A stretch of 64,000 bases of DNA from Rhizodiscina lignyota. Taxonomy: Eukaryota. The stretch is from positions 62,001 through 126,000 of the forward strand of contig ML978126.1 in NCBI GenBank assembly GCA_010015805.1. The letters are read 5' to 3'. Below, piece after piece: positions 7,612-21,039 of this stretch (within the stretch, counting starts at the first letter, position 1; each line of letters starts with the position of its first letter). Under the pieces are notes generated by a model. The model was not told the DNA's origin. It saw nothing but the letters and a program-made list of their open reading frames with translations, and did no database searches. A program made the position numbers and the translations under genes.

Positions 7612-8920
7612 TTACAGCTTTCCAGCTACATTTCCAAGACCAGCGGACAAGTCTCCAAGGAACATCCACTTGGAGTCTTCCGCCCAACCTCTCTGTTTCC
7701 AGTCATTTGCACTCTTTGGATAAAAATCTATCACGTCCAATAGGTGCTACTCATTGCATCTCGTCAGCAGTGGCATCTTGTGGGAGATGGACCTGCTCAC
7801 CTCGTCATGCGCCATGCATACAAATACGTTTGGATTCACGTCAAACTCTTGGATTTTCTCGATTGTCTTTTCCGTCGTTTCTTTGTCATGATGCACGCCG
7901 TTCGGCGAAAGCTCGTAGAAGGGCTGCGTCGGCGACTTCTTGAAATGAATGTCGAGGAACAGCGACCCCGGACAGACCGAGCCCGAGTGCGTTGCGCGAG
8001 GCCATGCACCAGTTCTACGAGGGTTGATCGGATTGGGGACAATATGTTTCGGCAGTGGTAGGTATTGGGAAGGCCTGAATTCTCCACCATGATGGCAGCT
8101 ATCGGCCCCCATCAAGATAAATGTTGGTGGGGAGAGCGACGTGCGAGCAAGACCGCAGATGTGTCCCACAGCGTGCTTTGGATTCTATTAACACCTCTTC
8201 TCTCAGAGCATGATGGCATACCTACTCCAGGAGCGTCTAGGAGATAGAACGATCCATCGCCGAAATAGTCAAAGGCAGCAAATCGACCGAGCGTCAGACC
8301 ACCTCCCTCTTTCTCGAAGTCTATCTCTCGAAGGCTGCGTCCACTGCATGATGGTTATTCATGACTCCAAACAGAGAACTAGAACCGACAACGCACCTGT
8401 AGTCAGACTCCAAGAAGGGCGCGTTTTCATTTGCAGGGTACCCGGGCAATAAGGCTTCTTTAAACCCAGGTCCAACAATCAAGTCAGTGCTCTTCGGAAA
8501 TGTACTGGGATCTCCGATATGATCGAAATGCCAATGGGACCAGATCACAGCTTCAATGCTCTTGGTGTCGATGCCGGTTTCTGTTAGGATGTCGGCAACA
8601 TTTTTCTCTGTGTAGAGATCCCATGTACCGTCCGTGACCATCTTGACCATTACTGGCGCCATATTCTCCCAGTCTTTTCGTACACCAAGGTCAAATACCA
8701 ACCGTCTCGTTTCTCCATGCGACTCATGCTCGATGAGGAACGAATACGCCGGCGCAGTCAATTTGTCGTGCCCTTTCATCTGTGGATGCATGAATCTGCT
8801 AATATTCGTTGTCTGGATGAAGCATGTCGTATTAATCACTTTTACAGTGACAGTTTTGTCCCCAGGAGGGAGATGAAGCTCAGGAGCCGGCGCTGCTGGT
8901 GCCAGAAGTTCAGAAGACAT
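7612..8920 (-). CDS. metallo-beta-lactamase-fold hydrolase (AHL-lactonase-like / fungal lactamase-lactonase type), multi-exon
   Basis: HWHFDH (HxHxDH), [16 protein letters not shown] and AHD metal-ligand motifs in the spliced frame; ends ...[18 protein letters not shown] at 7612. Confidence 0.9.
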
Positions 8921-9076
8921 GATGTAATGAGATGACAACAGATTTGGGGGATTTCTCAGTGGCCTTGGGCTTTGAATTCGAGCTCTACGTGTTCTTCGTG
9001 GGTCTTATACGATCTCACGTCGTTTAACAGTCTGGCGCCTTTTCATGCCAAATTGAGGATTGCTAATGCTCCTCTT

Positions 9077-9239
9077 CGCCGCGGACGCTCGCTTGCCCGA
9101 GAGCTTGCCAGGCTCTCGTGGCGGGGTACGCCAACTCCGATTAGGCTCGTATCCTGCCTCGGAGCTCGTACATTAGCCCAGTACAGCATCTATCAACATC
9201 CCTAAATTCAGGCCCCCCCTTAGGCGCCGCGGACCGAGG
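9077..9239. promoter_or_regulatory. candidate Zn2Cys6 binding sites in the divergent lactonase/BVMO promoter
   Basis: CCTCGG 9157-9162 and CCGAGG 9234-9239 (FarA/FarB/Ctf1 core motif); exact 10-bp direct repeat CGCCGCGGAC at 9077-9086 and 9225-9234; CreA-type GCGGGG at 9121-9126. Confidence 0.45.
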
Positions 9240-9526
9240 ACGGTCTAATAATGACCCTTGGGATATACATCGAACCGATTCAGATCTTCCCTGGGCTTGG
9301 CTCAACCTCCACCATTTCGGTATCAAATTCAGAGACGTAAATTGACTTCAAAATGGCACAAGTTATATTTAATATTACTCCAGATGCTCTTCGTTTATGT
9401 CTTAGAAGTGCATTTATTATTCATTTATTCAAGTTCGCTATTATACCATTACTTCAAGACCAGACCGCTATCAATCATCTATGCTCGTACTCTAATTAAT
9501 TCAACTTCACCTTAACAACTCTCACC

Positions 9527-17506: not shown

Positions 17507-18038
17507 AGACATTCTTACTTTTAAGTTCTCAGAAGGATCAATTCTCGTCTTGTGGCTTCTGCACAGTTGTCATACATAAACCCACAGTATCACAGAATTC
17601 CATATTCCGCGCTTTATCATGGTTGCCTATTTCAGTTACAAATTGATTTTTGGCTGATTATATAAGTGAATATGCTTCGGTTGCTTAACCAAATCAATTA
17701 AATACTTAGTTGGTTTGAAAGAGCAGGTAATGAAGAGCTCACGCTCGGAGTGTTGACTCCCTTTGTATTTCCGCGTCTCCATGTCGGGCTTATGTCTGGC
17801 AGATCATATCGATCCTTCGCACCCAAGCATTATCTCGAAACGACAAACGCACGACAAACGTCTGAAGCAGAGTCCTGACCAGCACATTTCGATGCTCCGG
17901 TATATATACTAGTGTACCTGGTCGCGGAGACTTTTCTCATTGTCAGCAGCACGGTAACCAGTTCTTTTGATAAGATCGATTCCGCTCATAGCGTTTGCTC
18001 CTTCACTATCCATTAGGTTATCCTTTCATCAATTCAGA

Positions 18039-20328
18039 ATGAAATTGACACCGGAACAGTTCGTGGCGCAAAGCTATGATTATCTGATTGTCGGAGGAGG
18101 TCTGCTTGTACTCGTCTGTTCTAGTTCGTTCATAAAACACTAACATCTCCGCAGGTACTGCGGGATTGGTCCTGGCTGCGCGTTTATCCGAAGACGAAGA
18201 TGTCACCGTAGGTGTTCTTGAGGCCGGCGAAGACAGGACAGACGACCTTTTACTCTCCATGCCTGCGGGATTTCCGCAAACATATGAAAAGCCGGAGTAT
18301 GATTGGTACTACAAAACAACTCCGCAGGTATAGAGAAGCCAAACCTAGCCGGCAAGCTCAACGACTAATATTTATCATTAGGAAGGAATGGGTGGCCAGG
18401 TTCATGGATGGCCGCGAGGGAAAGTCCTCGGCGGAAGTAGCATGATCAACTATCAGGTGAGCCGGAAACCCTTCAGAGCATTCGGAATTGCGCTGACAGG
18501 TTAGTTATTGTCGATGGCGAGCAAAGAAGACTTGGACAATTTTGTGAGGCTTGGTAACACTTCATTGGGATGGGACGACTTATTGCCGTATGCATTCGCA
18601 ACTTACATTTGAAATGAATGCTGATTTTGCAAGGTACTACCGGAAGTTCGAAACGTATCACCCTCCCGGCGAAGACTCTGAGTGGCCCCGTGAATTATCC
18701 GAATACATCGATCCCTCTCTTCGCGGTTCTAATGGGCCAATTCAAATAAGCTTTCCAGGAGCTCCGATGTCGGTTACCTGGATGAACTCCTTGTGGCCAA
18801 AGGTGTGTCTCGAACTGGGTCATCCAAGTGCGTTGATTCTCGTCACGGTATGCATCAGGGGATTATCCACAAGATCTTCTAACGTCTCTACCAGACCACA
18901 TGATCCGAGGAGAGGCAGTTCACTTGGCGCTTTTAACCAACCGCTCATGGTTGATCCGAAGACGAAAACACGAAGTAGCTCCGCATCTGCTTATTACAGA
19001 CCAAACGCTTCCCGAAAGAGCCTGTTAGTGCTCACCGGGGCTTTGGTGACAAAGGTTCAACTGAAGCAAAGTTTCGAGGACTTTTCAGCCCAGGGTGTCG
19101 AGTTCTCAAGCGGTGGAAAGCTCTATTCGGCCACGTGTAATCGGGAAGTCGTGCTCTGTGGAGGAGTCATCAACTCACCTCAGCTCCTGGAGCTTTCCGG
19201 TATTGGATCTCACCAAATTCTGGACGGGAAGGTGGAATGCTTAATTGGTAATCCGAACGTTGGTGAAAACCTGCGTGATCATATCGGCACGCCGAACGGA
19301 TGGGTAAGGTCCTCTGGATGATCTTTGTCGATCTTGGTTACTCATTCAGTACGTAGCAAGTCAAAGACGACGTTTTGACAGGCCAAAAGCTACTCCATGA
19401 TTCCTCCTGATGCAACAAGCTATGGAGGCTTACCTCACTCACAAGTGCGGCCCTCTCACTGCTCCAAACAACGCAATTGGGTTCGCTCACTATGAAACGC
19501 TTGTCGGCAGCCGAACCCCGAGCTCTTTGCCAAGGTGACTGATAACTTGAAAGAGCTGCTTAAGGCATACCCAGGAGATACGCCTACTGAGCGAGAGATC
19601 ATCGAACTGGAGGCTCGCCAAATATTCAACAAAACAGAAGCAGATGTCCAGATTTATGGTGTGCCGGGAGGATGCGACACATCAAACCTGGAATCTCCAC
19701 TATCATTATTTGGAAATCAGGACACTGGGAACTATATGTCCGTCTACGCTTGGACAACACGAACATTCTCAAGAGGCAACGTACACATAAAGTCTGCTGA
19801 CCCGACAGAATATCCTGCCATTGATCCGAAATACTTAAGTCATCCCGTTGACGTCGAGCTCCTGGCATTAGCCATGATGCATTTTCAGGAGTTAACAAAG
19901 TTGGATAGCTTTGCATCGAAGCTCGCGCTCGGAACTGATGGGAAGCCAATTCTGGTTCGTAACGTCGAACAGTCTCCAGGAATGAAACTGATTCTCCGTA
20001 GATGCCGTGCGCAGCGGAACTGAACACTATGGATGACGCGAGAAAGTACGTGCGCAAAACGTCATTCACAACATACCACCCCATCGGAACATGCTCTATG
20101 TTACCGAAGGAGAAGGGTGGTGTCGTTGACAGCAATCTTCTCGTTTATGGCACGACTAATTTGAGGGTGTGCGATGCCTCAATTTTCCCAATCCACGTAC
20201 AGGTACATAAATCAATTTCAATCAAAAGTACTAAAGTACTAACCACGAAGAAGGGTAATATTTGCAGCTTGGTCTGGGCTAGCGCGGAGAAAGGCGCGGA
20301 TATCATGAAAGCTGCTCGAAAGGCGTAG
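18039..20328 (+). pseudogene. GMC oxidoreductase (aryl-alcohol oxidase/glucose dehydrogenase-like), frameshifted as assembled
   Basis: [77 protein letters not shown]; in-frame TGA at 19408-19410 and frame changes near 19405 and 19510. Confidence 0.8.
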
Positions 20329-20404
20329 AAGTTTCTCATACGGATGGCGACCAATCGACAGAAGAGCTTCCGAGGAATCTTCATTCAACGTAACCTACGA
20401 GCGT

Positions 20405-21039
20405 TCAGATGCCGTACAATGTATTCAACTCCTTCAAGAGCTGTGCGAAGTCACTTTGTCCTGCTTGTGCTCGTCGCTCAAATTCTGCCTTGCTGGCCTT
20501 CAACCAAGCGAAATCATCACCGCCCTAATCAAATTCTTCAGAACTATCTTCTATGTTCTCGCATATGAATCATGCTTACCTTTGGAAGTTCTAGACCGTT
20601 CTCAATTCCCGCCGTGAATCCGGGTACGGCAAGTAAAATTGTGAGCTCTTTGTCTCCGGCAGTGCTGGATGTCACGTTGAGGACCTTGTTCCAGGCATCG
20701 GATATGTCTTGAAGAAGCCCCAATAACTCCTCACGACTATGAGCCTCCGGCCGGACCTCAGCGGTTATCCGATTCGGTGATGTCTGCTCGGCGCGTGAGA
20801 TGGTGTGCCGCCTTCACCGAAGCAGAAGATGCTAAACAGAAAGGTGTGAGCTTAACACTACGTACCCTTCTTTTCCCTCCAGCATACGCAGCCTGACTCG
20901 ACACGTCGTGGAAGTATATCGATACAAATAGTGAGGGCACACCAAAGCTTGTCGAATGAATCTGAGTGATAGCCAGGGCCAATTGACCGGTCTCTTCAGC
21001 AGTAAGGCTGCAAGAGTGGAATACATCATACGTAGGCAT
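20405..21039 (-). CDS. tautomerase superfamily protein (cis-CaaD-like / Tautomerase_3), 3 exons
   Basis: Starts M-P (catalytic Pro1): MPTYDVFHSCSLT...LALAITQIHSTSFGVPSLFVSIYF; later exons AGIENGLELPK and GGDDFAWLKASKAEFERRAQAGQSDFAQLL*. Confidence 0.85.

Follow-up and report, generated by a model that had tools for sequence, protein, structure and literature searches.

The six genes at positions 7612-21039 of the window, a 64,000-nucleotide stretch of Rhizodiscina lignyota contig ML978126.1, appear to form an accessory island of xenobiotic-type genes whose working core is a divergent pair encoding a Baeyer-Villiger monooxygenase (BVMO) and a metallo-β-lactamase-fold (MBL) hydrolase, and not a six-step pathway. 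We put the probability of this reading at roughly 55%. The island is probably lineage-specific and partly decayed, and its chemical logic is a known one. The first-pass annotation had proposed a catabolic pathway spanning all six genes. This proposal is not supported, because conserved linkage was not found in the loci compared and the GMC oxidoreductase gene is broken.

The block lies 70-83 kb from the contig start. All six contiguous genes previously described are present in the orientations given: MBL (-), BVMO (+), a Zn2Cys6 transcription factor (TF) (-), DUF2855 (+), GMC (+), and a Pro1 tautomerase (-), which gives two divergent pairs and, for GMC and the tautomerase, a convergent one. 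In a selection of window open reading frames (ORFs), Pfam matches were obtained to Lactamase_B, FMO-like/NAD_binding_8, Zn_clus, DUF2855, GMC_oxred_N and GMC_oxred_C, and Tautomerase_3. Spliced models are open for every gene except GMC. No polyketide synthase, nonribosomal peptide synthetase, or terpene synthase family was matched in the same selection, and scanned ORFs from the window and from the 10 kb left of it gave no match to a backbone gene. The earlier statement that no biosynthetic backbone gene is present therefore holds among the window ORFs scanned.

The BVMO gene (9563..11423, + strand; database model P0001) is intact and encodes 585 residues in three exons (9563-9855, 9913-11188, and 11235-11423), with an additional in-frame ATG at 9527. 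Type I BVMOs are recognized by the fingerprints [AG]GxWxxxx[FY]P[GM]xxxD and FxGxxxHxxxW[PD]. The corresponding stretches here are GGTWLVNRYPGCTCD at 78 and FEGEIMHSASWD at 192, and the FAD Rossmann motif is GAGAVG at 47. The type I motif test was passed with every motif present, in agreement with the original class assignment. GCRR at 336 and Asp92 are invariant or near-invariant in our alignment (A1) and, as read from motifs, match the catalytic R337 and D63 given for BVMO-AFL838 (PMC4966971). The closest solved structures are cyclohexanone monooxygenases (E 9e-63), and relatives bear StcW or cyclohexanone monooxygenase labels. The end branch of the window BVMO measures 0.75 against a median of 0.21. 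It differs at 17 of 213 near-invariant columns while retaining all four motifs, compared with 0 of 209 for the other copy in the genome. By these sequence measures, it is an intact, fast-evolving second copy, that is, a diverged duplicate.

The MBL gene (7612..8920, - strand) is likewise intact, encoding 383 residues in four exons (8920-8397, 8343-8226, 8175-7801, and 7746-7612); the spliced model is identical to P0121. The metal-ligand test was passed, with HxHxDH at 129 followed by His, Asp, and His in GHAVGH at 214, GADSCH at 237, and AHD at 336. HxHxDH occurs in 120/120 homologues. Matches in the PDB and NCBIfam are only of the AHL lactonase (9kho; AttM, AiiA), 4-pyridoxolactonase (3aj3), or MpaDE-hydrolase type, all of which share this di-metal motif and the downstream ligands. 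The scores lie far below the family cut-offs, namely those for AiiA (47.9 against 390 bits), AttM (36.3 against 375), and 4-pyridoxolactonase (36.3 against 325), and the protein belongs to a large fungal subfamily. On this profile evidence, it is a relative of the AHL-lactonase/4-pyridoxolactonase group that stands outside those families. The label "MBL-fold lactonase" thus stands for the group and not for any of the three named families. The C-terminal GKL was considered as a peroxisomal signal and rejected; because a canonical PTS1 occurs in 0/120 homologues, we do not use it as targeting evidence.

The two genes are transcribed back to back, with their ATGs 642 bp apart. The shared promoter carries CCTCGG, a FarA/FarB-type motif (PMC5068947), at 9157..9162 (+) and, inverted, at 9234..9239 (-). 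Two copies of the motif occur in 5.4% of the window's 642-bp stretches. The motif also lies upstream of 28 of 34 BVMO relatives, and none was found in the 800 bp upstream of the conserved C15 copy of the BVMO. As CCTCGG is typical of the whole BVMO family, these sites are no pointer to a local regulator. Within the genome, one MBL-BVMO pair lies within 3 kb (0.08 expected) and three within 15 kb (0.42 expected), in a post hoc statistic that assumes a uniform genome when accessory genes in fact cluster. Elsewhere in this genome, an HSL-type esterase lies no more than 3 kb from each of two further BVMOs (0.19 expected).

In the proposed mechanism, Far-type regulators would activate BVMO and MBL from their common promoter. 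The BVMO, judging from its motifs, would use NADPH and O2 to insert oxygen beside a ketone carbonyl, and the di-metal MBL hydrolase may then hydrolyze the resulting lactone (or ester), yielding a hydroxy acid that would enter general acyl-CoA metabolism encoded elsewhere. Since this diverged BVMO lacks the usual partners of its clade and has a lactonase-type neighbor instead, there is a hint that the ketone is cyclic and not linear. The other four genes (TF and DUF2855, GMC with its broken frame, and the tautomerase with its altered residue) would be neighbors or remnants standing outside this pair. Counting against the island reading, the classes of all five enzymes suit one pathway unusually well.

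Synteny of the six-gene set had been named beforehand as the refuting test, and its outcome, over the loci covered, goes against the cluster. Among the best 80 of 404 metagenome loci of BVMO relatives, the TF, DUF2855, GMC, and tautomerase were found in 0/80. An MBL family member was found in 1/80, and this one does not group with the window MBL. These loci, anchored on the BVMO only, comprise 57 distinct genes; many flanks are short, with 39 loci extending at least 2 kb upstream and 18 at least 9 kb downstream. The GMC search relied on three in-frame query pieces, which recovered the control paralogue in L005. In the match tables, 0/18 same-species gene pairs are adjacent, and no orthologous second MBL/BVMO pair was found there or in the 80 loci. 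Because the sample lacks close relatives of the host fungus, a cluster confined to its order would escape it. Close BVMO relatives recur instead, at loci L010, L011, L013, and L035, with an esterase, an iron alcohol dehydrogenase, an acyl-CoA ligase, a transporter, and a regulator, the hydrolase partner being an HSL esterase and not an MBL. One locus, L026, combines an MBL, an esterase, a BVMO, a TF, an acyl-CoA ligase, and CoA-transferases.

The GMC gene (18039..20329, + strand; AA3, labeled "alcohol oxidase") is a probable pseudogene, as read from its frame. A 67-nt canonical intron (18828-18894) separates two in-frame exons, and GGGTAG, TYHPIG, and QGN are present (GxGxxG and the C-terminal His/Asn pair). 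The test for a continuous frame after splicing failed, with breaks near 19402 and near 19510, both within conserved coding sequence. Canonical splicing ends after 239 residues, or after 371 with intron 5 retained. For the database model (P0361) to be open, 22 codons of intron must be kept and about 50 conserved ones left out. Two frameshifts are clear in the sequence and a third, at intron 5, is only probable, since a weak GTTGAT donor or retention of this intron preserves the frame. Unusual splicing does not rescue the gene: the top profile score, 678.6 bits, requires two frame changes, and the best of 1232 open one- or two-intron solutions reaches 642.4, so that none comes within 36 bits of the frameshifted reading. 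Assembly error was rejected on a 157x contig that agrees with the window at every letter of 5000-22539, with 0 gaps; this contig may come from the window's own sample and so does not show the state of the gene in other strains. Repeat-induced point mutation (RIP) left no signature (TpA/ApT 0.68, as in the neighbors). In the first-pass annotation, which overlooked the frame break, the alcohol-oxidation step falls to this probable pseudogene. Six genes that were not found together elsewhere, one of them broken, are probably not one pathway.

The tautomerase (20405..21039, - strand), of the fungal cis-CaaD subgroup, has 165 residues in three exons (21039-20866, 20783-20580, and 20524-20405). The catalytic set given for cis-CaaD is Pro-1, His-28, Arg-70, Arg-73, Tyr-103, as well as Glu-114, and those cis-CaaD/Cg10062 subgroup members that are eukaryotic are described there as fungal (PMC5818174). 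With numbering transferred by motif and not by structure, the window protein shares with cis-CaaD/Cg10062 (PMC5818174; PDB 3c6v) Pro1, His27, the first Arg, and the Glu at its expected place. In its RxxxR[ST] motif, His stands in place of the second Arg, which 4/4 genome paralogues keep, and no counterpart of Tyr-103 (PMC5818174) occurs in the stretch before the Glu. The dehalogenase residue set is therefore incomplete. Exon 2 as the sole query gave chance matches only.

DUF2855 (16199..17506, + strand) is a single-exon gene of 435 residues and the only copy found in the genome. Its sequence profile had no significant match in the PDB (best E 0.78). The predicted structure (pLDDT 95) adopts the two-domain GroES-like and Rossmann fold of MDR proteins (Foldseek E 1.7e-11; Z 25.0). 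The best 50 structural matches are all NAD(P)H-dependent MDR-fold reductases (Z 22.3-25.0), led by ene-reductase 8ov8, PTGR2, plant double-bond reductases, and pulegone reductase. The whole-chain match to PTGR1/2, plant double-bond reductases, pulegone reductase, CurA, and LovC reaches Z 25.0 with an rmsd of 3.3 Å over 312 residues, although DUF2855 is only 8-14% identical to these zinc-independent enzymes and about 90 residues longer. Across 98 DUF2855 sequences, none of the 27 near-invariant columns holds a Cys or His, leaving no conserved zinc ligands. On the structural model, DUF2855 is closest in fold to zinc-independent ene-reductases and is itself a predicted ene-reductase. The suggestion that it supplies reduction thus gains a suitable predicted fold, though a fold alone proves no function. 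In bacteria, DUF2855 occurs in 13 of 201 genomes, and one bacterial DUF2855 used as query against a collection of genome contigs matched only five close loci. At the 15 loci examined with 1.5-kb flanks, the neighbors differ (a GST-like protein and an amidohydrolase twice, an FMO-like protein once, and enoyl-CoA hydratase with CoA-transferase once), and no BVMO, MBL, GMC, or tautomerase partner was seen in the 88 of 154 ORFs scanned.

The TF gene (12656..15188, - strand) encodes 758 residues in five exons with an open frame. It has Zn_clus and, in the exon scanned, a weak Fungal_trans match under the Pfam cut-off (Atlas features 0.95). Its two nearest genome paralogues are 23% and 25% identical, and the closest Far-type paralogue, the C20 TF, is about 23% identical over 470 columns. 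We take the zinc cluster of the C20 protein to resemble canonical FarB, and this gene is presumably the likelier FarB orthologue. The designation "FarB-like" holds only loosely: the window TF is a distant Far-type paralogue. It has the Zn2Cys6 and fungal-specific TF domains in common with FarA/FarB (CTF1alpha/beta; PMC5068947), whose motif stands in the BVMO/MBL promoter, and is shorter than A. flavus FarB, given as 928 residues (PMC5068947). The claim that the block has its own such regulator is not supported, as CCTCGG is family-wide in these BVMOs and missing upstream of TF/DUF2855 and of GMC. A single copy precedes the tautomerase, about 700 bp upstream.

We also considered, as an unlikely but serious alternative, that all six genes were brought together to act as a single pathway on a cyclic allylic alcohol or on an enone, such as a carveol/carvone-like wood terpenoid, under the local TF, with the first step since decayed in this strain. 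GMC would oxidize the alcohol to the enone, DUF2855 would reduce the C=C bond, the tautomerase would equilibrate ketone epimers or enols, the BVMO would form the lactone, and the MBL hydrolase would open it. The structural matches of DUF2855 fit such a route, the six genes stand in a row with no housekeeping gene between them, a TF of the Far-type family could read the CCTCGG sites, and the enzyme classes parallel the route that Rhodococcus erythropolis DCL14 uses for carveol as outlined in PMC4097962. However, in the loci compared no pair recurs except a non-orthologous MBL/BVMO, and promoter words shared across the block are at chance (two 8-mers common to three or more of the four promoters, 1.7 expected). 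The broken GMC and the lost tautomerase Arg also weigh against it, as does the absence of a transporter or CoA ligase from the block. A bolder version, which we hold rather unlikely, is a young, lineage-restricted fungal cyclic-enone route that drew on other families to rebuild the carveol pathway of bacteria, with DUF2855 as a new zinc-free ene-reductase family, a switch of BVMO partner from esterase to MBL, a Far-derived regulator, and an entry oxidase that this strain has lost.

A chance meeting of six unrelated genes, BVMO and MBL included, in a region of gene turnover is improbable. The families are large, with about 47 BVMO/FMO-like, 10 MBL, 26 GMC, and 5 tautomerase loci in the genome (counts merged by hand), CCTCGG is expected before this BVMO family whatever the neighbor, and close BVMO relatives pair with the HSL esterase; yet the head-to-head BVMO/MBL spacing is tight, and a hydrolase next to a BVMO recurs in the same genome and in L026. 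Very improbable is a set of tailoring genes left over from a biosynthetic cluster with its backbone lost or elsewhere (a MoxY/StcW-type BVMO with an MpaDE-type lactone-forming hydrolase). MpaDE does carry out lactonization in mycophenolate synthesis (PMC11934065), but the StcW labels on several BVMO matches and the mpaDE label on one MBL match are automatic transfers, the ORFs scanned held no backbone gene, and BVMOs of the close clade are found repeatedly beside catabolic genes and with Far-type sites.

Bacterial cyclohexanol catabolism is encoded by chnA/B/C. The DCL14 carveol route comprises a dehydrogenase, carvone reductase, ketone monooxygenase, and lactone hydrolase (PMC4097962). Compared with both systems, the block could follow the same order of alcohol oxidation, ene reduction, Baeyer-Villiger oxidation, and lactone hydrolysis, but its enzyme families differ from those described (PMC4097962) at each step except the BVMO, its oxidase gene is broken, and conserved linkage was not found in the 80 BVMO loci. 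BVMO-plus-hydrolase modules are already known, as is terpenoid detoxification by fungal BVMOs: the limonene-utilization genes of Grosmannia clavigera include the BVMOs CMQ_6956 and CMQ_7007 (PMC8120277). These are listed as peroxisomal in that source, whereas a canonical PTS1 ends 0/77 full-length BVMO relatives here. Our literature search, with most subscription papers and supplements outside its coverage, found no paper on a fungal BVMO/metallo-β-lactamase lactonase cluster and no text match for DUF2855; at the level of titles, the six-gene block and the recurring BVMO/esterase partner cluster were both absent from its results.

As a cluster, the block is of little weight, being neither conserved nor whole. 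The Far-type sites upstream of BVMOs that are often labeled sterigmatocystin enzymes point to catabolic control of this family. As a candidate for a fungal ketone pathway not yet described, the recurring cluster (BVMO with esterase, iron alcohol dehydrogenase, acyl-CoA ligase, transporter, and regulator) ranks ahead of the window block, and DUF2855, as a predicted ene-reductase, is of biocatalytic interest. The DUF2855 fold and the recurring BVMO partner cluster outweigh the window cluster in importance.

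The block at window positions 7612–21039 comprises genes for an MBL-fold hydrolase (MBL, minus strand), a Baeyer-Villiger monooxygenase of type I (BVMO, plus), a transcription factor (TF, minus), a DUF2855 protein (plus), a GMC oxidoreductase (GMC, plus) and a Pro1 tautomerase (minus). Pfam searches confirmed all six families, and their order and strands are as in the first-pass annotation. Five of the six genes have open frames after splicing, GMC being the exception. The window is fungal, as its genes carry spliceosomal introns and the source label Rhizodiscina lignyota is attached to proteins matching BVMO and MBL at 100% identity; it lies at 62–126 kb of a 2.16-Mb contig in a 33.4-Mb genome. 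Gene structures, motifs, folds, GMC breaks and promoter sites are direct results. Our preferred reading, with a probability of roughly 0.55, is a working BVMO/MBL pair within a lineage-specific, partly decayed island. Far-type regulators would induce the pair, BVMO would insert oxygen into a ketone, the lactone would then be hydrolyzed, and the hydroxy acid would enter CoA metabolism.

BVMO has the complete set of type I motifs, and the solved structures nearest to it are cyclohexanone monooxygenases. In a quick-method tree of 77 full-length relatives its end branch is 0.75 against a median of 0.21, and it violates 17 of 213 near-invariant columns, compared with 0 of 209 for P0046, the BVMO copy on contig C15 of the same genome. 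The long branch and column departures, with the motifs kept, indicate a diverged second copy with predicted intact chemistry. The metal-ligand set of MBL is complete, and its PDB and NCBIfam matches were to AHL lactonases and 4-pyridoxolactonase only, far under the cut-offs. From its sequence, we may fairly infer that MBL hydrolyzes a lactone.

The GMC reading frame is broken. The database protein model (P0361) stays open only by translating 22 codons absent from homologues and omitting 19304–19510, which costs about 50 codons present in homologues. Scored against a profile built from 39 full-length homologues, the top reading (678.6 bits) runs through 19357–19401, 19404–19508 and 19511 onward in three different frames; the remaining eight frame combinations scored 637–667 bits, and all 1232 open one- or two-intron solutions scored at most 642.4 bits. 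Splicing of the canonical introns leaves a frame of 239 aa, or of 371 aa when intron 5 stays in; residue 528 of the model is the catalytic His. A third break is probable at intron 5 (67 nt, flanked by in-frame exons); use of a weak donor, or keeping the intron, could circumvent it. An assembly slip was ruled out by a contig of 157x depth that aligns gap-free to the window, though the run behind it may derive from the same sample as the window. On contig C10, an iron alcohol dehydrogenase adjoins a GMC gene.

DUF2855 was found as a single copy in the genome. A confident structure model (pLDDT 95, from 98 sequences) matched zinc-independent MDR reductases along its full length, with fold Z scores of 25.0 for the ene-reductase 8ov8, 24.7 for both PTGR2 and a plant double-bond reductase, and 24.3 for pulegone reductase; the family (98 sequences) has zero near-invariant Cys or His. 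A role in reduction, as proposed earlier, is thus plausible at the level of the fold only, through this predicted ene-reductase-type match. Our literature search found nothing on DUF2855. A bacterial Atlas cluster (93 members, about 820 aa) contains DUF2855, with NAD_binding_8 also present in a third of members; at locus L110 an FMO-like gene directly follows DUF2855, and L111 holds an 817-aa frame with DUF2855 at its end. The tautomerase belongs to the fungal cis-CaaD subgroup and retains four of the six residues listed for cis-CaaD in a section of PMC5818174 (Pro1, His, the Glu and the first Arg). In place of the second Arg, which all four genome paralogues retain, it has His. A six-gene enone pathway whose first step has since been lost would parallel, in its enzyme classes, the Rhodococcus erythropolis DCL14 route for carveol as outlined in part of PMC4097962; we hold this account to be possible, if doubtful.

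The 642-bp MBL/BVMO interval contains two inverted CCTCGG sites; two such sites, in whatever orientation, occur in 5.4% of the window's 642-bp stretches. An excerpt of PMC5068947 describes FarA/FarB as binding CCTCGG. Of the 34 distinct BVMO relatives with 800 bp of upstream sequence (loci L010–L089), 28 carry the motif, mostly 150–400 bp before the gene, with 35 sites observed against 12.6 expected. It ranked first among 60 permuted hexamers (median 12), and 22 downstream controls held 4 sites. This enrichment argues that the sites are a BVMO family trait that would not require the local TF. No CCTCGG was found in the 800 bp upstream of the C15 copy or in the TF/DUF2855 and GMC upstream regions, and no word common to four block promoters exceeded chance. 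The TF contains a cluster of six Cys together with a Fungal_trans region. Its nearest genome paralogues are on contig C20, with 46% identity across the zinc cluster and 23% across 470 columns, and on contig C4, with 25% across 379 columns. The C20 zinc cluster is presumably of canonical FarB type, and the window TF appears to be at most a distant Far-family paralogue. The first-pass claim that the block has its own FarB-like regulator is not supported by these results. The C4 gene, the TF's second-closest paralogue, adjoins an AtuA (acyclic terpene utilisation) gene at L091:807–5731.

A metagenome search with a 50-BVMO alignment recovered 404 relatives, the best 80 loci of which represent 57 distinct genes; of the 80 loci, 39 have at least 2 kb upstream and 18 at least 9 kb downstream. 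TF, DUF2855, GMC and tautomerase occurred at none of these best 80 loci and MBL at one, L026, where the BVMO is just 40% identical and the MBL falls on a long branch outside the window MBL's group (FastTree). Among the matches listed, none of 18 same-species pairs (10 BVMO-MBL, 5 BVMO-DUF2855, 3 MBL-DUF2855) was adjacent by locus tag or contig, two different-strain pairs being excluded, a weak test because the families are multi-copy and 120 matches were listed per search. In the genome stretches examined, no second partner lay near paralogues of the six genes, with two exceptions: on C22 an MBL and a weak FMO-type gene are 4.4 kb apart, and on C1 about 12 kb separates an MBL from a BVMO. Conserved linkage of the six genes was not found among these loci and pairs. 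The first-pass interpretation of the block is partly supported. A literature search found nothing on a BVMO/MBL lactonase cluster. That the six are chance neighbours seems improbable, and a biosynthetic remnant highly so.

The window has several other features. Two convergent genes left of the block (2550–3994 and 4400–5182) bear C2H2-like repeats at their C-termini and match no other Pfam family. Of two small proteins that are probably secreted and lack Pfam matches, one, at 21669–22929, is Gly/Ala/Ser-rich with a short repeat near 22180–22240, and the other, at 31329–31808, is Cys-rich and 150 aa long. At 40292–43683, a questin-oxidase-like gene adjoins a beta-propeller lactonase gene, another oxygenase/lactonase-type neighbourhood. 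Consecutive genes for a Zn2Cys6 TF, an MFS transporter, an AtuA/DUF4387 protein and a second MFS transporter (44206–52768) form a possible separate catabolic module.

In Grosmannia clavigera, BVMOs act in limonene detoxification, according to a passage of a review (PMC8120277), so fungal Baeyer-Villiger terpenoid catabolism is not new in kind. In the close BVMO clade, 16 distinct genes share 55% or more identity with P0046; L010 and L011 supplied the queries. Five neighbours recur: an acyl-CoA ligase, an HSL-type esterase, a sugar-type transporter, a Zn2Cys6 TF and an iron alcohol dehydrogenase. At least one accompanies 8 of the 16 genes and at least two accompany 4 (137 of 226 listed ORFs scanned); of the 8 without partners, 3 have long flanks and 5 have flanks under 1.1 kb. 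These partners are absent from the block and from the surroundings of the C15 copy, which adjoins an enoyl-CoA hydratase. HSL-type esterases lie within 3 kb of two other BVMO genes of the source genome (C3:1630725–1633346 and C13:615835–618759), and the BVMO-beside-hydrolase arrangement thus recurs there. At L026:681–21680 lies a catabolic cluster that is more complete (CoA-transferase, MBL, esterase, BVMO, Zn2Cys6 TF, acyl-CoA ligase, second CoA-transferase), with two CCTCGG sites upstream of its BVMO. The recurring cluster occupies L011:99–11769, L013:1–14521 (with a thiolase), L035:721–10002 and L010:5621–11791, and also occurs at L014, L038, L056 and L061, in varying gene order; our literature search found nothing on such a BVMO/esterase/ligase cluster. 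The recurring neighbours therefore indicate that a ketone-to-ester-to-alcohol-plus-acid-to-CoA logic is conserved for the BVMO clade, with genes other than those of the block, and the cluster resembles a fungal catabolic module for ketones or keto acids that is so far undescribed.
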